Below are positions 9,110 to 50,860 of a stretch of 64,000 bases of DNA, piece by piece. Under the pieces are notes generated by a model. It ran no database searches. It was not told the origin of the DNA and saw only the letters and a list, made by a program, of their open reading frames with translations. Every line of letters starts with the position of its first letter. Position 1 is the first letter of the stretch. The stretch is from NCBI RefSeq assembly GCF_004010195.1, contig NC_057740.1, positions 7,478,894 to 7,542,893 on the forward strand, read 5' to 3'. This stretch comes from Chiloscyllium plagiosum. Taxonomy: Eukaryota. The translations under genes and the position numbers were made by a program.

Positions 9110-9960
9110 AGTGTGTACAATCTTAGCCTCCTTATCTAAGGAAGTACATGTAAACCATCGAGGGAATGCAATAGAGATTCACCAACCTGGATTGGTTGGA
9201 TTGTGTTCTGAGGAAAGATTGAGGAGACTGTCTGTATTCACTAGTCATGATTCGGAGATGCCGGTGTTGGACTGGGGTGTACCAAGTTTAAAAATCACAC
9301 GACACCAGGTTATAGTCCAACAGGTATAATTGGAAGCACACTAGCTTTCGGAGCGACGCTCCTTCATCATGTGATTGTGGAGGGCTCGATCGTAACAGAA
9401 TTTATAGCAAAAATTTGCAGTGTGATGTAACTGAAATTATACATTGAAGAAATTATACAATCAATTCTTCAGTGTATAATTTCAGTTACATCACACTGCA
9501 AATTTTTGCTATAAATTCTGTNAAAGCTAGTGTGCTTCCAATTAAACCTGTTGGACTATAACCTGGTGTTGTGATTTTTAACTCTGTATTCACTAGAGTC
9601 TCAAAGAATGAAGGGTGATGTCATTGATGCTGAAAACATATTTGCAGGGAGTGAAACAGTTGACGTAGAGGAGATATTTTCCCTGCTTCAAACTAAGAAA
9701 ACATGTCAAGGCAAGTAGACCATTTAAGATTCTGATGAAGGTATGGTGTATCTTTGGAGTTCTCTCTACCCCAGAGACCTGTCAACAATCAATCATTAAG
9801 CATGTTCAAGATGCACATCTATAGATTTGTGGAGACTACTGATACCATTGGATGTAGCAATAGTGTGGGAGAGTGGCACTGAGGTTGATGATCAACCATG
9901 ATGTAACTTAAGGGTAGAATAAGCTTGATAGGATGAATGGCCTACTCATGTTCTTCTGTT
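9110..9960 (+). mobile_element. Old CR1 3' fragment interrupted by the 9245-9582 insertion
   Basis: EERLRRL...SLE..RMKGDVI-like sequence on both sides of the TSD, plus a CR1-type tail (gaatggcctactc). Confidence 0.6.
9245..9582. mobile_element. Inverted PLE-terminus insertion (family B) with hammerhead core
   Basis: Perfect 14-bp TSD tctgtattcactag (9231-9244, 9583-9596); arms are reverse complements centred near 9460. Minus core aTGATGA-aggagc-gtc-gctcc-GAAAGCTA at 9342-9370. An N at 9522 replaces the matching core of the right arm. Confidence 0.8.
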
Positions 9961-10178: not shown

Positions 10179-10282
10179 GCTTCTTCCCAGGCAGTTCTCA
10201 AGGATGTGATGCATTTCTTCGGCACAAAATGACTCTTATATCGCCTTCCATACTGAAGAAGTACAGCATTCCCTTTGATAGG
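10179..10282 (+). CDS. KDM4B: KDM4-family (JMJD2) lysine demethylase internal exon, JmjC domain; (G)[34 protein letters not shown]
   Basis: Polypyrimidine tract plus ttttgcag| acceptor and AGG|gtaggt donor; 104 bp, phase 1 to 0. Translation matches the KDM4 JmjC segment containing the Zn-ligand Cys/His and the conserved Lys (KDM4A C234/H240/K241). [13 protein letters not shown] fits KDM4B best, from recall. Confidence 0.93.
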
Positions 10283-12250: not shown

Positions 12251-12342
12251 CTTGTCAGTGTCCATGGCCTTGTCAGTGTCCATGGCCTTGTCAGTGTCCA
12301 TGGCCTTGTCAGTGTCCATGGCCTTGTCAGTGTCCATGGCCT
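12251..12342. repeat. Perfect tandem repeat, 18-bp unit CTTGTCAGTGTCCATGGC x5
   Basis: Five identical units read directly from the sequence. Confidence 0.97.
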
Positions 12343-13643
12343 CCAAATGGTTTTTGGTAATGTATGGAGTGGTCTGAATTGGCTGAGGACTGGTATCTGT
12401 GATGCTGGGGATCGCTGGAGGACTCCAAGATGGATCATGTACTGGGCACTTCTAGCTGAAAACTGTTGCAAATACTTCATTAATGGAGAAATTTTTGTCT
12501 TTTGACCATGTCACTAAGCACTCAATCTCTTTCCTGTACTCTGTCTCATTGTTGTTTGAGACCAGACCTACAACGGTGGTGGTGTTAGCAAACTTGAAGT
12601 TGGGCTGGAATTTGGCCATCGCCGCGTGTGTATAAGGAATACAGTAGGGGGTTCAGCGTGCTATCTTGCAGGACACTGGTTTTTGAGGATTATGTGGAGG
12701 AGATGTTCTCGCCTTTTCTTACCAATAGTGGTCTGTGGGTCAAAATGATGAGGATCCATTTAGAGAAGGAGGAGAGAGACCTAGATCTGAGTTTGGAGAT
12801 GAGTTTGTTTGGAAATATGATGTTGGTGGGGGTATCTATAATTAATAAGTAGGAACTTGATGTAGGTATCCTTCTTATCCAGATGTTTCAGAGATTAGTT
12901 ACGGCCAGGGAGATGGCAGCTGCCGTGAACCTTTTGCATCATAAGACAAATTGCAAAGGAGTAAGGCAACCTAGATAGCTGGAGTTGATGTGAGCCATGA
13001 CTAACCTCTCGAATCACTCCATAATAATGGAAGTCAGAGCCATGGGGCAGTAGTCACTGAGGCATGCTGCATGTTTTTTCCTTTGCACTGGGATAATGGT
13101 GGCCATCTTGAAGCAGGTGGGGACTTCAGATTGAAGTGTGGAGAGATTAAAGATGTCAGTGAATATTGTTGCCAGCTGATCCGTACAGAATCTGAGTGCA
13201 CGGCTGGGTACTGAATCCAGGACAGAAGCTTTCTGTGGGTTCGCTTTCAAGTAGGCTGATCTGATGTCTGCAGCAGTGACTGTGGTTAGAAGTACATCTG
13301 AGAATTTTGGGACAGGTGATATCGTTTCACTGACTTTTTGTTTCATGCTAGTGTAGAATGCATTGAGCTCATTGAGTAGGGATGTATTGTTGCCTGTAAT
13401 TCTGTTTGACTTCATGTTGTAGCTGTTCTGTCATGTATGCTTTACCACAAGTGACAGGTGTCCGTGTGGTTAGTCTGGGTCTGAAACTTAGTTTGATATT
13501 GCCTTTTGGCACATCTGATGGCTGTGTGAAGGTTGTACCTGGATTTCCTGTGTAGGTCAGGGTTGCCTGACTTGAATGCCTCAGAGCTGGAAATGTGTTG
13601 CTGGAAAAGCGCAGCAGGTCAGGCAGCATCCAGGGAACAGGAG

Positions 13644-13679
13644 AATCAACGTTTCGGGCATAAGCCCTTCTTCAGGAAT
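13644..13679 (-). ncRNA. Minimal type-I hammerhead ribozyme motif
   Basis: CTGAAGA-a-GGGC-ttat-GCCC-GAAACGTT on the minus strand (core 13648-13675); GUU triplet. Confidence 0.65.
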
Positions 13680-14587
13680 GAGGAAGGTTTGTCCGTTCAC
13701 TTCCACTTATTGATTTCATTAATTAAGCCCTCAGCTTCTCTAAAGTTGATGCAGACAGCTCTCAACAGCATTCTTTTAGGTTAGATTGCAAGTCAGTATG
13801 GTGCTTATTACTGATAATGAGCATGGACTTGATGGAGACCACTGGTCTTGTTGGCCAAGTTCTTTTGATGTCAGATTTTAGCAAGCACACAAAATTATTG
13901 AATTGTACACCCTGGTCATAAATGAACATAATAATATCACTTCATGTTGCCAGATCATTAAGTTATGAATTGCCTAGTTTTACAAATTTGCAATATTCAT
14001 TAAAGCTGTATTTTCACTCCATAATATTATGATATATCTGTCACCATCTAGCCTTGAAGCATATTTTTTGTTGAACGTCAGTGAAATCTTCATTTGCCAC
14101 TCTCTCCCTTTCCATGCCACAATTTTAAGTATAACAAATGCATTTAAAGTAGAATTATTTTTACACAAAACAGAAGTAGATGAGATAGCAACAACCTATG
14201 TCCATGCACATTCAGAAAGGGTCAAAGACTCTTAAATGCATTCCGAAAGCCTATATTGTTGGATGCTAAGGACAAAAACTTCTTCAGAGTGTAATACTGC
14301 TTTCTAGAATCACTGTTTCTAGATCAAACTAATAACTGCCATATAGTACCCAAATAGATTCAGTAGTCTGGCACTTCCAGCTAAGCAGTCACTTTTCCTT
14401 CAAACAGACATATATACATACAAATGTTAAAGCAAGGAGTTTAAAGGAACAATGTATTTTCAATTGTCACTATTATTGATGAGAACCAAAAATGCTAGAA
14501 ACATTCAGCAAGTCAAGTAACAGCTATGGAATGAGGTAAATAGTAAATAAAGGATAATATGAGACAGGAGTTAAATGGGATAGGGTG

Positions 14588-15219
14588 TGTCACAAAGCTT
14601 GTCCTTTTTTTTCTAAAAGCTGTTCCTTGGCTCAAGGAAACTTTGTCCTTGACTTTTTTTCAGAGGGGCAATAAACCAGGCCAGGCTCTGATCAGTCTGG
14701 TTTGGTACAGAGGTGAAAAGGATTTTGAGAGGCCTTTTGTTTATAAGTAAATAGTTGAGACTTCAGGCCAAAGTGGTCATGTTTTAGAAGTGACCTGTAT
14801 AATAAAAGAGGAGTGGCCAGCTCTCTAGCTGAGCCGGGCACTTTTAGTTCAGCCTTGAATGATTTGGAAGTTCAACAAGGAGCTGTATGGAAACCCTCTT
14901 TCTCTTTTCTGCACTCCAACTTCAACCTGTATGAGTGTGTTCCGGTTGTACTGGTTTTTAAAGGGAGTTTGCTTATTGGGACTGTTGTGTTTATTCAGAA
15001 CAGCATGATTAAGTCTAGTTGGATAGGCTGAGTTCTGTTCTTTGTGGTTCTTCATGTAATTCTGTGAATAATTTTTTATCTGTTTTAAAATCTAGTAGTC
15101 AACCTAACTATCTTACTCCGGGTCATTTTCACTATACACTTACCAAAACAAATTGCAAAGTTATGGTCTGGGGCTGTCTGTTTAAGAATGTTTTGAGTTG
15201 TCTGGTCGAGTCCATAACA
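14588..15219 (+). mobile_element. Probable solo LTR (Gypsy-like) inside the cargo
   Basis: TGTCAC...ATAACA termini, imperfect 4-bp flanks GGTG/GATG; 3' end resembles 55240-55360. Confidence 0.55.
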
Positions 15220-15878
15220 GATGGAACAACAGTTTTATACATAATCCAATATTACATTCCATTTACTTCAGATTATTATCTCCCACAATATACCTAAACA
15301 TGAGATAGCTTTAGCAAAGGCTGCCAAGAATGTGGTCCATCTGGGACACTTAATGCCCTGGGAAAGGAATAAGGTTACAGAAGTATCCCAGCTGCTTGTC
15401 TTTCAATCTTGTTTTATTTAAGGTATTCATTGTCAGAAACGTATGAACAACCACTTTGTTGGTACAAAGGGTAGGCATGATGCTAAGAAAGTTATTAACA
15501 TGTTGGCTGGCCTTTTTGGCACATTTTGAAAGTTGGTGCCATGTAAGAAACATAAAATAATTAGAACAAGGCTTTCACTTCATCCTTGCTGATAGTGTAA
15601 TCCAATAAACCCTGTCCCTTGCTTTCCTCAAGGCCCTGAAAATGTTTCTGGACAAATATTTATCCAATGCCCTTATGAAAATTGTTGAACCTGCTCCCAT
15701 ACCTTTAACGTTTTCCATGTCACATTGATAAGCTGCTTAAAACCTTCCCCCACCCTCCTCCCTGACCTATCACCATCACCCTCACCTTGACCTCTTTCCA
15801 CCTATCACATTTCCGAGGCCCTTCCCCCAAGTCCCTCCTCCCTACCTTTTATCTTAGCCTGCTGGACAAACTTTCCTC

Positions 15879-15914
15879 ATTCCTGAAGAAGGGCTTATGC
15901 CCGAAACGTCGATT
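15879..15914 (+). ncRNA. Minimal type-I hammerhead ribozyme motif
   Basis: CTGAAGA (15883-15889), a, GGGC-ttat-GCCC, GAAA, CGTC. Palindromic ACGT stem III; predicted cleavage after C15910; weak stem I. Confidence 0.7.
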
Positions 15915-17033
15915 CTCCTGTTCCCTGGCTGCTGCCTGACCTGCTGCGCTTTTCCAGCAACACATTTTCAGCTTTGATCTCCAGCATCTGCAGACCTCAC
16001 TTTCTCCTTGAATGCCTCAGACCTGGACTTCAGTAAGGATAAGATCTCAGTTAATCCATGGTTTCCAGGGAACATTTGGATTAACTACTTTGGCGCCCAG
16101 TCTTCCACACATTTACTAATGAAGTCTGTAACAGTGGTGGCATACATTTTTAGGCTGTTTGCTAAGTTTTTGAATATTGACCAGTCAACCCACTCTAAGC
16201 AGTCCCATTGAAGCCCTTCCATTGAATCAGGCCAACACTGCACTACTTTCCGTATTGGGTCCTCACACTTCAATTTCTGTTTGTAAATAAGAAGGAGCAG
16301 TACAGCGTTGTGATCTGATTTTCAAAAATGTAGATAGGGGATGGAGCCAGAGGGTTCTTTGAACTTTGTAGCCTCATCTTTTGCTCTGATGTGTTGGGTT
16401 TCCCCAAAATTGAGGATTGGGATGTTTGTGAAGCTGCCACCTCCAGTGAGTTGTTTCATTGTCCTCCACTGTTTGTGATAAGATGTGGCAGGACTGCAGA
16501 ACTTAGAACTGATCTATTAGTGGTGGAAATGTTTACCTCTATCTTTCACTGCTTACTTTGGCAGACAAGTAATCCTGTATTGTGGCTTCATCTGGATATC
16601 CCTCATATTTAGATCATGCCTGATGCTACCCCTGGCATGCCAGCCTGCACTCTTCATTGAACCACGATTGATTTCCTGCCTTGATGGTCATGGTAGAGTG
16701 GGGCATATGCTACACCATGCGATTTGCATATTTTGCTGCTGATGACCCACATTATCTCATGGGTGCCTATTCTTGTTAGATCTTTTCAAAGTCTGGCTCA
16801 GTTGCTGTGGCGATAGTGCCATACAGCATAATGGGGGACATTCTCAATGTGAAGATGGGACTTTGCCTTTATAAGAACTGGGCGATGCAGTCTCACCAAT
16901 ACTGTAATTGACACATCTACCGTTGGCAGGCATATTGATGAAGATGAAGTCTAGTATGCCTTTCACTCTTTTTGGTTCTCTCAGGACCTGCCATATGCTC
17001 AGTCTAGCAGCAATGACCTTAAGAACTCAACCA

Positions 17034-28180: not shown

Positions 28181-30582
28181 AATATATGTGAAACAAATCT
28201 CCAACAATAGTTTTAACTGTCATTCCATGAACTACAGTGGAATAAAAGTACTCTGGTATGGAAGAACCAGCTGCCAGTTCAATATGAGCCCAGTTTTGCA
28301 TCATTAATTTAGATTTGTTGTGTTCCCTAGCACCAAGACTGAAATTCTTTTGGACATCATGGTTATATCTATTCAGCAGATAATCTTAGCCATAGATAAC
28401 AGCAAGGTCCGCTAAACATTTAAAATCCTGAGCCAAACATTTCTTTTTAGAGCTTGCCGATTAAACTCTTGAAAATAAAATTAATGCTAAGGTGACAGTT
28501 GAGAGAAACTAATGCCACAAAACACACATGCAAAGCTAACAGTTTCAGAATCTTGAGTATAACCTGTCTTCAATTTGCGTTTGCACATATTTTTTGCTTT
28601 CTGTCCATCCTTATCCTTTTTCTGGCTCTTTGCATTCACTCAGTACCCCTAGTGATTCACTGGCTCTCCCTTTCACTGACCTACCTTGTTTTCTGGTGAC
28701 ATCTTTCACTCCTCTTTCGCACGCACCAACTCTGGCTACAAATACCCCCTCTAATCCCCTCCCTCATATGCCCTTTCTCCTGTTGTTTGTGCTCTGCCTG
28801 TCCTTTTATCTCCCCCTCCCACCCCCCTCCTCCCATCCACTCAGTAGTGGTAGATCTTTGCTGTCTCTTCATTATAGATCACTTTGCTATGGCAGCAACT
28901 TGGCAAAGTGTGACCTTTGGGGCAAAATACTAATGTAAGCCTTTCGGACAATGCTGGGCCAAACTAGAGTCCTAGACTAACCACGTGAGCACACATATCT
29001 ACTGTGGCAAGGCTTGCATTATATAATGAGCTACAAAGTGAAGTCGACCAGAATTGCTGACGACAATGCATCTCTTGCTGATGAGTTCTTTTTGCTCATA
29101 GTGAGTCTTATGCTCGTTTTGAATAGAAGGTTAGTGAAATGATGCCACTTGGCCCGTTGGCCTTGAGTGCACCTGTGCCCACAGTCACTATTGCAGATGT
29201 TAGATGGACTTTCTTGTGGGTGCACCCATAAAAATTGGCTCAGATGGGGTTCCCGGCCATACGCTCACATCCTGTATGGACCAGCTGGTAGGAGTATTCA
29301 CAGGTGTCTTTAACCTCTCTTTACACTGATATGAGGTTCCCACCTGTTTCAAGAAGACCACTATCATCCCAGTGGGAAAGAAAAATCAACCAACGTGTTG
29401 TTCTGACATCCATTATTATGAAATGCTTTAAGAGATTAGTAATGCCATACAGCAGCTCCAGCTCTCAGATTGCCTTGATCATTACAATTTCCCTACCATT
29501 GCAATAAGTCCATGGCAAATGCCCATCTCCCTGGTTCTATACTTATCCCAGGAATCTCTGGATAACAAGGACACCTATTAACTCCCGTAAACTCCTGTTT
29601 ATTGGTTTTAGCTCCACCGTAAACACCATAATCCCCAACCTAATTCCGAGCTAGTACTCTGCTTCTTCCCCCTTCCCAACAACTGGATTCTTGACTTCCT
29701 GAACCACAGGCATCAATCAGTAAGGGTAAGTGACAACACCTACTCCACAATAATTCTCAACACTGATGCCTGCAAGGCTGCGAACGCAGCCCTTTACTAT
29801 ACTTATGATTGTGTGGCCAAATTCCACCTTAATGGGTTGGATCTCAAACAGCGATAAGACAGAGTACAGGAAGGAGATAGAGAGCTTAGCGGTATGGTGT
29901 AAAGACAACAATTGCTCCTCCATTATCCGCAAAAGGAAGGAGCTGGTCATTGACTTCAGGAAGCAGAGGGGAGAACACACCCTTTTGTGTATCAATGGTG
30001 TTGAAATGGAGGTGTTTAAGAGCTTCCAGTTCCTAGGAGTAAATATCAACAACTGTCTATCCTGGTCCATCTACCTTGATGCTACAGTGAAGAAAGCTCA
30101 CAGAGGCCTCTCCTTCCTCCAGTAGGCTTAAAAAAAAAAATTGGCTTGTCCACAATGACACTTACCCATTTTTATAGATGCACCATAGAGTACATTCTAC
30201 CCAGATGAATCACAGCTTGATATGGCAACTGCTCTTCCCCAGACAGCAAGAAATTAGAGTTGTGAACGCAGTCCAATCCATTACGAAAACCAGCCTTCCT
30301 TCCATTTACTGCATCTGCACCTCCTGCTCTCTTACGAAAGCCACCAACATAATCAAAGACCCCTGGGTAGAAGATATAAAAGTTTGAAATCACATAACAA
30401 AAGATTCCCCCTCCATTATCAGACATGTGAATAGACCTCTCATATTAGAGTTGATCTTTATGTGCATCTTCTCTATAGCTGTAACACTACATTTTGCATT
30501 CTGTTCTATTCCTTTGATGTACTCTGTAAAGAATCATTTGTCTGTTGTTGTGGTTCTGTTCGCTGAGCTGGGAATTTGTGTT

Positions 30583-30622
30583 GCAGACATTTCGTCCCCT
30601 GTCTAGGTGACATCCTCAGTGC
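30583..30622 (-). ncRNA. Hammerhead ribozyme motif in the inverted PLE arm
   Basis: gca-CTGAGGA-t-GTCaCCT-agac-AGGgGAC-GAAATGTC-tgc on the minus strand. Confidence 0.6.
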
Positions 30623-31208
30623 TTGGGAGCCTCCTGTGAAGCGCTTCTGTGATGTTTCCTCCGGCATTTATAGTGGTTTGTCTCTGCCGCTTCCGGTTGT
30701 CAGTTCCAGCTGTCCGTTGCAGTGGTCGGTATATTGGGTCCAGGTCGATGTGATTATTGATAGAATCTGTGGATGAGTGCCATGCCTCTAGGAATTCCCT
30801 GGCTGTTTTCAGCAAAACTAATGTAGTGTACAAAATCCCATGCAAGGACTGCACAAAACACTACATAGGACAAACAGGAAGACAGCTAACGATCCGAATC
30901 CATGAACACCAACTAGCCACGAAACGACCTGACCAGCTATCCTTCGTCGCCACACACGCAGATGACAAGCAACATGAATTCGACTGGGGCAACGCTACTG
31001 TTATAGGAGAAGCCAAGCAGAGAACAGCCAGGGAATTCCTAGAGGCATGGCATTCATCCACAGATTCAATCAATAAGCACATCGACCTGGACCCAATATA
31101 CCGACCACTGCAACGGACAGCTAGAACTGACAACTGGAAGCGGCAGGTACACATCACTTATAAATGTCGGAGGAAACATCACAGAAGCACTTCACAGGAG
31201 GCTCCCAA

Positions 31209-31246
31209 GCACTGAGGATGTCACCTAGACGGGACGAAACGTCTGC
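31209..31246 (+). ncRNA. Minimal type-I hammerhead ribozyme motif
   Basis: Stem I GCA/TGC; CTGAGGA 31212-31218; stem II GTC...GAC; GAAA-CGTC; predicted cleavage after C31243. Confidence 0.7.
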
Positions 31247-31744
31247 AACACAAATTCCCGGTTTGGCGAACAGAACCACAACCACGAGCATCCGAGCTAC
31301 AAATCTTCTCACAAACTTTGAATCATTTTGTCTGGTTAGCGTGGAAAGCAATACTTTTCACTGTCTCTTGGTACATGGGATGAATCAAATCAGCTAACTG
31401 ATTAAGTTATGACTAACATCATATCAGTGGCACTCAAAATTACTACAAGGAAATCTACTATACTGTAATTAGAAAATCCTGGAACAACTAGGGTCAGGTG
31501 GCCTGTGGAGGGAGAAACAATGTTGAATACCTTTCGTCAGAATTGGAAGAAACTAGAGAGAGAAGATTAACATCTGCAGAGATAAGAAAAGCGTGGATAA
31601 GTCTGAGATAGAGTTGAAGGAGGGAGATTAAAAACGAAGTGAATATTAGTGCAAGGTAAAAGATACTGGGACAAGTAGAGAAATAAAATATCTGCAGATT
31701 TTAAGGTACAATAGCACCTCTTCTACCTCAGGAGGCTAAGGAAT

Positions 31745-37562: not shown

Positions 37563-39870
37563 TTTTTTAAAAAAAAAAGCAAAGTTATTGTATAAATGCA
37601 AGTTGACATGTTCCATTTGTGTAGTAATTTTATTAAGATAAAATCTCTGAAGGTACGTCATGGATGTGTTATAAAACAATAGTCACATGAGATAATAGAG
37701 TGGATGACCATACATTTGGTCAAAGTAGTAGATTTTAATTTGCATCTTAAAGAAGGAAAAGGATGCAAAGAGATTTGGGAGGGAATTTTGGAGTTTGGAG
37801 CTAGGGAAATGCAAGCAATTCTTTAATTAGTAAAATAATTAAAATTGGGAGCCAAGAGCTCAAAATTACAGGAGCATAGAGACTAATGTGCTGTAGTGTG
37901 GAGGGCAGTGTAGAGGTTAGGAAGGGCCCGGGCTTTACAGGAATCTGAATACAGAATGCAAATGTTAAAAGGTGCAGTATTGTATAACTGCACACAGGTG
38001 TTTGTCAGTGATCATGAGAAGAGCAGTAAGAATTATGGACTATAATAGATCAGTCTGAGGGTAATGGCTCAGTGGTATTTGTTCAGCAATAGCCTGCGAA
38101 CTGATACTCCGTTTAATTTCCTCCAGGATCATTTATCTCGTAGCCTTATAACCATGTTCCAAAATTGGTAAAAAAGCTGAACTTAAGAGGTGAGGTGAGA
38201 GTGACTGCCTTTGACATTAAGGCAGTATTTGAATGAGTGTGGCATCAAGGACCCCATACAAAGTCATTGGGGATCAATTTGGAAAACACAGATTGGAGTC
38301 TCACCTAGTTGTTGGAATCCATTACAACTACAATATGCAGCATATGCTGGAAACCAGCATTCAGAAAATGTAACTTTCTGAATACGATCTGTTCAAAGGG
38401 AGCTACATTTGAGTATTGGTTATGTGCAGTCTGTCCAGCACCGAGAGGGATTGATGCCAGACTTTGGGCACTCAGGATAATTTGGGGGTCACTGAAGAGG
38501 TGTTCAAATCAGTGTGTGTGTGAGTGTGTGTAAGATGTAGGTAGACTGACGTGACTTTTTGTGATCTATAACTTGTGGTGTAATACCTGTGTTAGCTGCT
38601 GTAGCATATGAATGAGACATGGGTCAGATATTATTGAAAAGCTCGATTAATTTTAAACATGGCTTCTAAAATGGAAACTACAATCACAGGCACTTATTAA
38701 GCAGTTCTGACGTTCTGTAGCAAGCTTCCTTCAGTGTGCCATGCTGCAAAAGGATTCAGTAAGATGGAGTGTGAGATCATTTTATCATAAGGCCACATGC
38801 CATAATATGCTAATGACATCATTGGCATGTCCCTTGAAGGTATAACGGACATCTGTCTTGAAACATAACAAAAACAGTTAAGATGTATCAAAGAAAATTG
38901 ACATTGAGCTTGGATATATGATAGAGAACTAATATTTTAAATGAGAATCCATAGATGTGAAAACAGTTGAAATGCTAAAAAGAGAATTCTCCAAATTATC
39001 AGTCTTTTAGTTGAAAAGCACACCAGCTCCAGTTTGGGTAGTACATGAAGTTACAACTCAGTGAAGATTGGGGAAGATGTTGTCACCCCTAACAGGTTTC
39101 TGTCAAGATCTTGATATTGTCTACATTAAACTCTTGAATTTCACTGACTTTGCTTACAAATAAATCTTTCTTTAATGTGGCCCATTTTTAAACAGAGATG
39201 TGATTTCCCTGAGATATGGTATTGCCTGTAACTCAAATTTCCAAGATCACCTGATTTGTAGCATCTGTTTTAAAAGCCTATGCGTCTAGTTTTTAAAAAT
39301 ATCGACTGAAAATTCAAAATATGACTCTGTACTGGGGAATGACACAAGAATTTCACAGAAACTCAAACCTAAGCTGCAGTCAACCTTGAGGCTGGTTTGG
39401 TTGAGGTGAATGTGTAATTTTAAAATCCTCCTTTCACTCACTTCCCATACCTACTGGAGAATATAGACAAAGAAGCCAAATGATGACAGTATCAGCTGTA
39501 ATGACCCAAGGCCAATAGCTATAAGATGTTTTGTGATGTTTTATTATATTATAGCTATAAAGATAACTTACTAAATGGAAAGTGTATTATGGTGACCTGG
39601 ACATTTATTTGAAAAACGGTAAAGTAGCTTGCTTACCTTGTGGGCAAGTAGTTTGTCATACAGCCTTCCTGACTGGTTACTACATTGCTTTCCAATTTGA
39701 TATCCTCTTTTATTTATAGTCATTCAGAACCTCCTTGAGGTTCATTGCTGGATCCAGTTCTAGACATACCAACTTACTTTATATTGTGTAACAACTATAA
39801 GTAATGTATTACAATGAAATCTATGTAAAGCTAATTCAAGGTGTGTAGGCATTCCAGCACACACAGCACT

Positions 39871-40523
39871 TCAAAGTTTGTGAGAAGATTTGTAGCTCAG
39901 GTGCTCGTTGTTGTGGTTCTGTTCGCCAAACTGGGAATTTGTGTTGCAGATGTTTCGTCCCCTGTCTAGGCGACATCCTCAGTGCTTGGGAGCCTCCTGT
40001 GAAGCGCTTCTGTGATGTTTCCTCCGGCATTTATAGTGGTTTGTCTCTGCCGCTTCCGGTTGTCAGTTCCAGCTGTCCGTTGCAGTGGTCGGTATATTGG
40101 GTCCAGGTTGATGTGCTTATTGATAGAATCTGTGGATGAGTGCCATGCCTCTAGGAATTCCCTGGCTGTTCTGTTTGGCTTCTCCTATAATAGTAGTGTT
40201 GTTGACAAGCAACATGAGTTTGACTGGGACAACACTATTATTATAGGACAAGCCAAACAGAGAACAGCCAGGGAATTCCTAGAGGCATGACACTCATCCA
40301 CAGATTCAATCAATAAGCACATCAACCTGGACCCAATATACTGACAACTGCAGCGGACAGCTGGAACTGACAACCGGAAGCGGCAGAGACAAACCACTAT
40401 AAATGCTGGAGGAAACATCACAGAAGCGCTTCTCAGGAGGCTCCCAAGCACTGAGGATGTCACCTAGACAGGGGATGAAACGTCTGCAACACAAATTCCC
40501 AGCTTGGCGAACAGAACCACAAC
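39871..40523 (-). mobile_element. Second family D PLE, almost wholly an inverted repeat (39871-40202 minus, 40203-40523 plus)
   Basis: Same sequence as 30545-31319; hammerhead cores at 39949-39982 (minus) and 40451-40484 (plus); degenerate TSD acacacagcact / acatataccact. Confidence 0.9.
40448..40487 (+). ncRNA. Minimal type-I hammerhead ribozyme motif
   Basis: gca-CTGAGGA-t-GTCaCCT-agac-AGGgGAT-GAAACGTC-tgc. Confidence 0.65.
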
Positions 40524-41929
40524 ATATACCACTTTTTTTTTACAAAAATGGAATCAATAGTTTTAAGAAATAAATTGTTCCCGTTGGTGGAAAAAAACCC
40601 CATTATAATTTAAATCAGTTTTTTGTGATTAGAATGAATAGTTTTCTGTCTGTGCATCAAAAGATGGTTACACATAGTTGGATCATTTGGCCTGATCTGT
40701 TTGTACTGGCTCTTTGCAAAAGCAAATCACCTGATATCACTGCCTTGCCCTTTCCTAATGTCTGAAAATATTTCTCTGTCAATAATTATCCTTTTTTTTC
40801 AAAGGTTTCAGTTGAACTTGCTTTCACCACACTCACTCTCGGGCAGTATTTTATAGGTCCGAACCCTTCACTATGTAAAGAGTCTTCTTTCACTAATTAC
40901 CTTAAATTGACACCCTCTGATTCTCAATCCTTCTGAGAATGACTCAGGGAACAATGACTCTTTATCTACTTTGTTCACAGCACTCATGATTTTGAATGCC
41001 TTTAACAAATCTCCTCATGATCTTTTCTTAGGAGGCAAGCCCCAACTTTTTCAGTGCATTGATGTAACTGAATTTCCTAATCCCTAGGATGATTCTAATG
41101 AATCCTCGTTGCACCCTTCACACCCTTCCTAAAGTGTATTGCCCAGAACTAGACTTGATGCTCCAAATGAGCCTGACTCAATTTTTCATACAGATTTATT
41201 TTTATTTCCTGACTGTTTTTACTTCATTTGCTTGCTTATGAAGTCCATGATCTTGTAGTCTTTATTGACCACTTTGTTAAATTGTTCTGATGTCATCAAC
41301 TAGAATTTATACTTTGTTTTTTCTGCTCTGTACAGCATTCTGCTAATATAATGTAATATGATTGTTTTGCGCATTGTTACATGTCACTTGGGTAGTGTGC
41401 TAAAAATCAAAGTCAAATGTTCCCAGAGTTGATGTACTAGCTTAGAGCTCTCAGCCAACCAACCTCCTTCCCTCCCGCTGCAAAAAAAAACCCCAGTCTT
41501 GTGCATGCATACACTTGCACATGCGCACACATACCAAAAGAACAAGGGTGATACGGGCAAAGCGATTCCTGTTTTGAGAGCCACAGCTTACAGCAATAGC
41601 TGAGGAAATAAAAACTGTCTTTCTTCAGGCTTGAGATACTTCGTATTATAGAGCAAAACTAGTTGTTTCTGTAATAACAAAGTGAATGGGTAAGGCAGTA
41701 GTGAGTAGCATGGTGGTTAGGGCTGATGAGTATGTTGGGGAAACATGTTAAAAGTGTATTGATGGAGTAAAGATTTGGCAACCAGTTCATGCAGGATTAT
41801 TAAGAGTGGAGGGTGGGGGAATTTCGAGAGCGAGTGAAGGAAGGTATTGCATACAACAGGAGTGTTAATGCATGAGCTTTGTGGGAGGTGGCTGTGAAAG
41901 GAATAGAGTAAATGGAGGTAGCAGAGAAC

Positions 41930-46986: not shown

Positions 46987-47181
<195 letters not shown>

Positions 47182-49700: not shown

Positions 49701-50012
49701 CCCTGGGTCCTCTACAAACACTGCCCCAGGTTAGATTAATAGTTATAGCTGATGTTTTAAGTTTAATCAAGTGACATATCTCAAAAAACATATAATCAAG
49801 AAAGAACCCACTCTACTCACTACTGCAGACGTTCTGCAGGCCACTTAAAATGATTAACTTATCTGATTGTGTGCTGTGAACTTCACCCAAACAGTTCCTC
49901 CAAGATCAGTTGTGAATTTCGCTGTTTGTTAATTTTCCCAGATGCACTGATGTCCAGTGGTACATGAATTCAAACAACAAAGGCAGTACTGTGCAGTTCA
50001 CTCTGGTTTCTT

Positions 50013-50686
50013 TCTCGCGCTCTCTCGCGCCCTCTCTCGCGCCCTCTCTCGCGCCCTTTCACTGTGTCTCACTGTCGCTCTCGCGTGCTCTCTCGCGCTC
50101 TTGCTGATTCGCTCGCGCTCTCTCTCGCGCTCTCTCTCGCGCGCGCTCTCTCTCGCTCTCTCTCTCTCGCGCTCTCTCGCGCTCTCTCGCGCTCTCTCGC
50201 GCTCTCTCGCGCTCTCTCGCGCTCTCTCGCGCTCTCTCGCGCTCTCTCGCGCTCTCTCGCGCTCTCTCGCGCTCTCTCGCGCTCTCTCGCGCTCTCTCGC
50301 GCTCTCTCGCGCTCTCTCGCGCTCTCTCGCGCTCTCTCGCGCTCTCTCGCGCTCTCTCGCGCTCTCTCGCGCTCTCTCGCGCTCTCTCGCGCTCTCTCGC
50401 GCTCTCTCGCGCTCTCTCGCGCTCTCTCGCGCTCTCTCGCGCTCTCTCGCGCTCTCTCGCGCTCTCTCGCGCTCTCTCGCGCTCTCTCGCGCTCTCTCGC
50501 GCTCTCTCGCGCTCTCTCGCGCTCTCTCGCGCTCTCTCGCGCTCTCTCGCGCTCTCTCGCGCTCTCTCGCGCTCTCTCGCGCTCTCTCGCGCTCTCTCGC
50601 GCTCTCTCGCGCTCTCTCGCGCTCTCTCGCGCTCTCTCGCGCTCTCTCGCGCTCTCTCGCGCTCTCTCGCGCTCTCTCGCGCTCTC
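50013..50686. repeat. (GCTCTCTCGC)n 10-bp tandem array, 51 perfect units 50171-50680, running into an assembly gap
   Basis: Read directly; degenerate units at 50013-50170. Confidence 0.95.
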
Positions 50687-50860
50687 NNNNNNNNNNNNNN
50701 NNNNNNNNNNNNNNNNNNNNNNNNNNNNNNNNNNNNNNNNNNNNNNNNNNNNNNNNNNNNNNNNNNNNNNNNNNNNNNNNNNNNNNNNNNNNNNNNNNNN
50801 NNNNNNNNNNNNNNNNNNNNNNNNNNNNNNNNNNNNNNNNNNNNNNNNNNNNNNNNNNNN
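50687..50860. other. Assembly gap (174 N)
   Basis: Run of N. Confidence 1.

Follow-up and report, generated by a model that had tools for sequence, protein, structure and literature searches.

At one place in the Chiloscyllium plagiosum genome, about 2 kb of ordinary genomic DNA lies between two inverted ends of a Penelope-like element (PLE), and we asked how it came to be there. The locus belongs to a 64-kb stretch on contig C31 of the 3.56-Gb genome (hereafter the window, in whose coordinates all bare positions are given). The first-pass annotation of this DNA had read it as a single PLE-mediated event, and the donor that we locate on contig C20, in the same orientation, bears out that reading. 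On the evidence of the assembly rather than of independent reads, the insert is a real, young and donor-traced PLE capture of host DNA. We consider it probable that an endonuclease-bearing PLE (family A) made this very recent insertion by homology-guided template switching during target-primed reverse transcription.

An exact target-site duplication frames the insert

The insert is bounded by an exact 15-nt direct repeat on the plus strand, at 13571-13585 and 16007-16021, that cannot be extended on either side and whose chance of arising at two fixed places is about 2e-9; the last 5 nt of the left copy also match the family-A end. It interrupts an old minus-strand copy of a long interspersed nuclear element (LINE), with one part left of the insert at 12485-13570 and one right of it at 16022-16321, which by its motifs is presumably Rex1-like; a Pfam search of two LINE pieces gave no match. 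Once the insert is removed, the two flanks join into a single minus-strand reading frame. Of 19 paralogous LINE copies, 18 have only one 15-mer, between left and right flanks that are contiguous. Because these paralogs carry the repeat singly and the frame rejoins, it is a genuine target-site duplication (TSD), and the earlier claim of a perfect 15-bp duplication splitting a LINE frame stands. An 18-nt tandem repeat also lies within the LINE at 12251-12342.

Consecutive predicted JmjC exons were recognized on the plus strand at 10181-10282 (weak, E 0.024) and 47008-47145 (E 2.5e-12), about 37 kb apart, placing the insertion site in a predicted intron of a KDM4-like JmjC gene.

The ends of the insert are inverted family-A termini

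Alignment of the arms (13581-13694 and 15864-15977, 96% alike) identified the insert ends as inverted copies of one PLE terminus, the family-A pseudo-long terminal repeat (pLTR). The left arm, a 109-nt inverted pLTR piece on the minus strand at 13586-13694, lacks the 34-36-nt tail, and the plus-strand right arm at 15775-16006 carries it (15973-16006). This is the normal anatomy of family A, whose 3' ends group either at the end of the tail or some 30-40 nt short of it and whose TSDs measure 13-17 nt, and it agrees with the earlier description of inverted termini, tailless on the left and tailed on the right. The right arm had been drawn as 15745-16006; it does end in a family-A terminus with tail but is not one unit, as 15742-15774 belongs to the donor's subfamily and family A begins at 15775.

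With inverted pLTR ends, a 30-40-nt tail at one end and a TSD, the insert has the hallmarks of an insertion by an endonuclease-bearing (EN+) PLE. A minimal hammerhead core was read by eye in each arm, at 13648-13675 on the minus strand (cleavage triplet GTT) and at 15883-15910 on the plus strand (CTGAAGA, an extra A, a 4-bp stem II, GAAAC and GTC). The minimum free energy fold of the right core contains stem II (z 0.72), and none of the 13 matches of an Rfam scan was a hammerhead, the minimal core being visible by eye only. Non-LTR retrozymes consist of tandem hammerhead-bearing repeats (10.64898/2026.07.22.740005). The cores at the insert ends are inverted, non-tandem and 2.2 kb apart, which sets the insert apart from that class.

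At the protein level, the reverse transcriptase (RT) piece of the element matched RVT_1 in Pfam with an E value of 7.5e-7, just under the cut-off. Its best protein relatives are from bamboo shark (87%), and relatives of the element are proteins of 800-950 aa with RVT_1, several of them with GIY-YIG (PF01541); the family's own GIY-YIG pieces gave no Pfam match.

The two arms differ from each other at 4 of 109 sites, and the cargo differs from its donor at 1 of 2,080. Every left-arm variant is found in other copies. Variants common to both arms (ggacaaac among them), which had been thought to favor one event, proved to be subfamily markers, with 71 and 109 occurrences in the fetched loci. Since the common variants mark the subfamily and the arms differ, the arms give no argument for one template; indeed, their differences rule out that both were copied from the same one.

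The cargo was copied from contig C20

A genome search with the interior, as had been proposed at the outset, returned two places (match counts from sequence searches are lower bounds throughout): the insert itself and C20:26796448-26794369, with 1 mismatch in 2,080 nt. A hammerhead-bearing PLE end directly adjoins this donor on its 3' side. On the plus strand of the window, the cargo at 13695-15741 is host DNA copied from G000:C20 (26796448 downward), with its single mismatch at 14013 and a blunt joint to the left arm. A contig of another individual has the insert's T at this position and then runs into sequence unlike the window, and the mismatch is most likely a polymorphism at the donor. 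The donor has an orthologue in a second species, with 29 differences and 2 gaps over 13695-14631; because the donor context exists there, C20 is the source and the direction of copying is fixed. Judged from sequence divergence, the capture is very recent. The C20 donor and its orthologue rule out a native intron as the interior, and a normal PLE body is ruled out by family-A bodies, which differ. The two places matched do not make the cargo an amplifying non-autonomous family, and they include no sibling copies within searches that give lower bounds.

On its 3' side the donor flank is followed by an older PLE end, which belongs to another subfamily, is hammerhead-bearing, lies in the same orientation and has its own 14-nt TSD. 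This end is about 85% like family A in its hammerhead half and aligns poorly in its 5' half. The upstream copy of the 14-nt TSD was carried along (15728-15741, plus strand), and is followed by the first 33 nt of the donor's PLE end (15742-15774, plus strand), after which the insert turns to family A. The switch at 15774/15775 falls within a 13-nt stretch common to both subfamilies, and 6 nt are doubled there; the left junction between cargo and arm is blunt, with no homology. The insert was thus built from at least three templates. A family-A terminus had been predicted at the donor, but the assembled donor ends in another subfamily. Nor does a plain end-to-end read-through transcript account for the structure: only 33 nt of the donor end were copied, and the remaining right arm and the left arm came from differing family-A templates. 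The element end is not identical to that of the donor copy, as simple 5' transduction would have it.

The cargo itself appears non-coding and shows no sign of function. No long open reading frame (ORF) was found in it, the longest running 92 aa from stop to stop, in line with the earlier statement that the interior holds no PLE ORF, and no intron-containing gene is carried. The repeat at 14588-15219 (unstranded), identical in the donor, begins with TG, ends with CA and is high-copy, and the earlier call of a probable solo LTR is kept as solo-LTR-like only. The interior presumably also includes a decayed PLE tail near 14480 and what we take to be a CR1 tail at about 15550-15740.

Other family-A copies carry host DNA

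We then considered whether capture by family A is confined to this locus. The samples were chosen by markers, and the count for the best right-arm copies is a floor: 37 of the best 40 scored copies were examined, and many interiors are masked. Besides the window insert, at least 3 of 36 top family-A copies carry host DNA found elsewhere at 100%, and 8 of 30 loci chosen on a pLTR motif (the first 30 of 138) carry multi-copy host DNA that is 99-100% identical elsewhere. Locus L129, with about 140 nt of non-PLE sequence, was excluded from the latter count.

Six further cargo sets were traced. In L071, L061, L183 and L210, the moved flank is followed at the donor, directly on its 3' side, by a family-A end that has a TSD of its own, and with these four donors the idea that PLE ends shuttle host DNA is borne out genome-wide. 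The L064 and L176 donors have no PLE end adjoining the moved DNA. L064 was joined on 7-nt microhomology, and L176, a locus on C15, supplies 257 nt of a 289-nt host spacer that is invariant in 26 copies (L150-L176, set F4) and separates the PLE body from the 3' pLTR. Another rearranged PLE copy, L177, was not supported as donor of the last bases of the F4 cargo. Several dispersed copies with the same interior exist for other cargos, not for that of the window.

Several of these sets show peculiarities of their own. In L057-L062 the family-A donor L061 is palindromic, its upstream flank recurs in five other loci, and several progeny have inverted arms longer than the donor could supply. L063-L065 include two insertions that are alike at the junction of inverted arm and cargo and unlike on the right, with a C15 donor that has no pLTR there; one junction lies on 7-nt microhomology to another PLE subfamily. 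L180-L184 and L207-L210 are donor-progeny sets with flanks of at least 1,986 nt and about 1,035 nt, several of whose progeny depart from the donor's pLTR haplotype within about 50 nt. In a single insertion, L141:400-1466, a 72-nt stretch from the 3' region of the PLE occurs about 15 times in tandem and in inverted orientation, which suggests repeated re-priming.

Progeny of one donor carry mixed termini

The largest view of template change comes from L071 (G000:C29:40651152 region), for which 34 of 43 matches are at 100%. Its family (L037, L069-L074, L100-L119 and L131) shares 1,369 nt of host flank, presumably CR1-like, followed by a family-A end. Across 26 progeny the cargo shows 0 differences in 31,514 nt, while the 6,812 nt of pLTR contain 127 differing columns, of which a single gap makes up 15; no progeny pLTR equals the donor's. 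When 27 progeny were compared by zone, differences numbered 0 of 756 in the first 28 nt and 49 of 1,134 in the next 42 nt, then 38 of 1,603, 18 of 1,619 and finally 5 of 1,755. Many of these variants recur among 64 unrelated sampled copies. A poly-C variant first taken as private to the family was rejected as such, having 138 matches genome-wide. Siblings L207, L208 and L209 likewise have identical cargo and different pLTR haplotypes.

All 13 of the 13 longest L071 progeny end at the same base, 1,369 nt from the pLTR, and one of them is joined to further host DNA; this common stop would follow from a chimeric master as well as from an RNA start at a fixed position. In shorter progeny, different cargo positions are joined to different places of the sense PLE ORF. 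L072 has a double cargo, with about 1.2 kb of a second, presumably CR1-like host stretch 5' of the L071 cargo.

Linkage among pLTR markers was measured at 40 loci, with siblings dropped and one arm taken from each (positions are counted from the tail end). Markers at -321 and -301 are completely associated (r2 1.0), as are those at -162 and -111 (r2 1.0), whereas -321 and -111 are independent (r2 0.00), with all four combinations present (13, 11, 7 and 6). Values run from 0.69 to 1.0 within two blocks and from 0.00 to 0.04 between them, so that association is lost in the interval from 301 to 247 nt upstream of the tail end; capture junctions span about -360 to -232. In the fetched loci, the 5' ends of family-A arms are concentrated at -121 to -128, immediately ahead of the hammerhead core, and again at -220 to -252. 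They form no clear cluster at -300, and a fixed strong-stop read from these 5' ends was set aside.

Probable template switching and its alternatives

Read from right to left, the window insert runs from a 15-nt TSD left by a staggered cut through 232 nt of family-A pLTR from the tail site and 2,080 nt of C20 to a second family-A pLTR from the no-tail site. Homology-guided switching would produce this order if RT began at the right nick with a family-A RNA as template, moved through pLTR homology to an unspliced transcript crossing the C20 flank into the old PLE end, and copied about 2 kb of that transcript before its product was bluntly joined to a cDNA started at the other nick. In vitro, each of the two strands is nicked and extended by a purified lizard PLE, whose RT starts internally at the two tail boundaries, with no need of ribozyme cleavage (PMC11167929). 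Jumping among pLTR-bearing RNAs would then be routine and fall mostly in a zone some 230-300 nt 5' of the end of the tail. Old PLE ends that are transcribed could all donate their 5' flanks in this way, and some captures may later have been amplified. We tentatively go further and suggest that a template jump may be built into PLE replication, with a start at the tail site and transfer, in a defined pLTR zone, to any other pLTR-bearing RNA present in the nucleus.

Several observations weigh against this account. Homology is not required for capture, because the L064 and L176 donors have no PLE end, and the 6-nt doubling at the window switch is not a clean in-register crossover. The template may have been RNA or DNA: no spliced cargo was found, and the long-frame listing together with 19 of 22 strict exon candidates around the donor gave no gene (0/19). 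No junction of the insertion was seen among the listed contigs of two other individuals, which is neither proof of absence nor confirmation. Within the L071 family, variation is slight at the far pLTR end, the donor's type at -111 is retained in 26 of 27 progeny, and most progeny lie as near to the donor as to any of the 64 sampled copies; on these grounds, short patches from other templates fit as well as a swap of the whole end. About half of the recurrent variants are CpG transitions. The marker-based samples, finally, are not random, and their fractions are not genome-wide rates. In one raw RNA run, of which about 2 in 100 reads were examined, 0 reads fell on the unique cargo, which is no evidence on expression, and the listed contigs of the other individuals show donor context only, with no empty-site joint among the listed joints.

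Decay of CpG sites after insertion was rejected as the sole cause of the mixed pLTRs, as the L071 cargo has 14 CpG per 1,368 nt that are unchanged and non-CpG variants recur; methylation limited to the pLTR could lie behind the CpG changes.

The alternative that fares best, though unlikely, dispenses with a donor RNA: a family-A cDNA end, by way of short homology, or a break-repair intermediate would have invaded C20, where a host polymerase copied 2 kb. Such DNA-templated capture predicts the same junction, and the cargo is unspliced and non-coding, with no gene or transcript shown at the donor. It sits poorly with other cargo families, whose nested 5' truncations and many TSD-flanked copies are typical of RT copying, with the single base at which the longest L071 progeny stop, and with the finding that, where the donor has a PLE end, nothing but the flank 5' of that end was moved.

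We regard as quite improbable a plain 5' transduction, in which one read-through RNA came from an unassembled donor allele with a family-A end nested in the old PLE end. The insert did copy a T-at-14013 donor haplotype rather than the assembled one, four other donors do bear family-A ends, and PLEs may target their own pLTR (PMC11167929). However, the nested copy would have to be cut off no more than 6 nt from the homologous position, the donor in the assembly is intact, and siblings in other families switch pLTR haplotype with their cargo fixed.

A very unlikely third possibility is that RT, primed at the left nick, jumped without homology to an antisense template from the donor and copied the cargo from it, and that two cDNAs annealed at a shared pLTR stretch. 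Antisense templates have been proposed for PLEs (PMC3846280), and L044 and L065 share the same left-arm/cargo junction with a different right side, but this route needs the jump to have landed by chance 2 kb from a PLE end in the right orientation, where 9 hammerhead-like cores lie in 130 kb around the donor, and in most families it is the 3' pLTR to which the cargo is fixed. A misassembly that put a C20 haplotype into C31 is scarcely credible: near-identity to the donor and the missing junction among other individuals' listed contigs would suit it, but the exact TSD with contiguous paralogs, the family-typical arm geometry, a left junction without homology and a right one with only 13 nt, and dozens of comparable TSD-flanked events do not.

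Relation to known systems

Related processes are familiar from other retroelements. SVA and L1 perform 5' transduction, and L1 forms template-switch chimeras such as U6-L1; there too an upstream flank travels with a retroelement 3' end and RT joins two RNAs, whereas the window insert has no poly(A), a 3' end that is not the donor's and a switch inside shared terminal sequence. Retroviruses and LTR elements undergo minus-strand strong-stop transfer and copy-choice recombination, in which a cDNA started on one terminal repeat is extended on a different RNA through repeat homology, with mosaic termini and captured host sequence as the outcome. PLEs differ in priming at a target nick, without tRNA primer, integrase or particle.

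The closest precedent is the rotifer Adineta vaga, in which Penelope-mediated mobilization of host DNA in trans was described by Arkhipova et al. 2013 (PMC3846280) and restated later (PMC6431247). As in that study, the window insert has DNA foreign to PLEs between its pLTRs, and the source of that DNA is elsewhere in the genome. Both systems have host DNA between pLTRs with a TSD, the rotifer including non-coding captures between solo pLTRs, and both have copies with a host-derived spacer before the 3' pLTR, there in Pen1 and here in F4 (L150-L176); template jumps were proposed for inserts in the rotifer (PMC3846280). In the accessible text of that account, the events are few, donors are not traced to the base and the pLTRs are taken as cis sequences of the moved RNA. 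In the shark, a vertebrate, donors are traced, ends derive from other templates or another subfamily, and captures are frequent, some reaching dozens of copies.

Canonical EN+ PLE units have an inverted 5' pLTR, a 30-40-nt tail and a TSD (PMC8557442, PMC11167929). The window insert shares with them its arm geometry, one-end tail and two 3'-end classes, and both-strand priming fits, but its interior is host DNA. Its cores resemble the minimal hammerheads of metazoan PLEs (PMC4209133) in a type I core, an unpaired base before stem II and a short palindromic helix III region; with a 4-bp stem II and a core known from sequence alone, they add nothing new. A literature search, which did not reach subscription papers, found no base-level tracing of PLE capture, cross-subfamily switch or pLTR linkage break. 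Penelope-mediated capture is thus already known from the rotifer, and traced donors, the frequency of capture and a switch zone were not found in print.

How PLE terminal repeats form, and how a copy is completed after an internal RT start, are stated as open in the literature (PMC2377424; PMC8557442; PMC11167929). The donor-progeny sets are young enough for template changes to be read at base level, which makes the switch model testable with the existing in vitro PLE system. If true, a built-in jump would regenerate pseudo-LTRs, recombine termini in each cycle and explain unspliced cargo. The very many old PLE ends of a shark genome would then become donors of their 5' flanks, making PLEs a steady source of duplications that are kilobases long, as in about a quarter of the sampled copies that are youngest and long. 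The data suggest an active route by which kilobases of host DNA are copied between chromosomes in a vertebrate germ line, and repeat annotation would split such captures into unrelated pieces. The interest lies more in the surrounding set of events than in the non-coding cargo of the window.

Additional features of the window

A second young PLE family occurs at 39870-40524 and 30544-31322 as palindromic or inverted-arm insertions that are 95-97% alike, and inverted arms are present in the PLE near 30544-31285. The window also contains a near-perfect 127-nt hairpin at 9395-9521, where matches to microRNA models fall far below the gathering score, and a long 10-nt tandem array at about 49930-50750.

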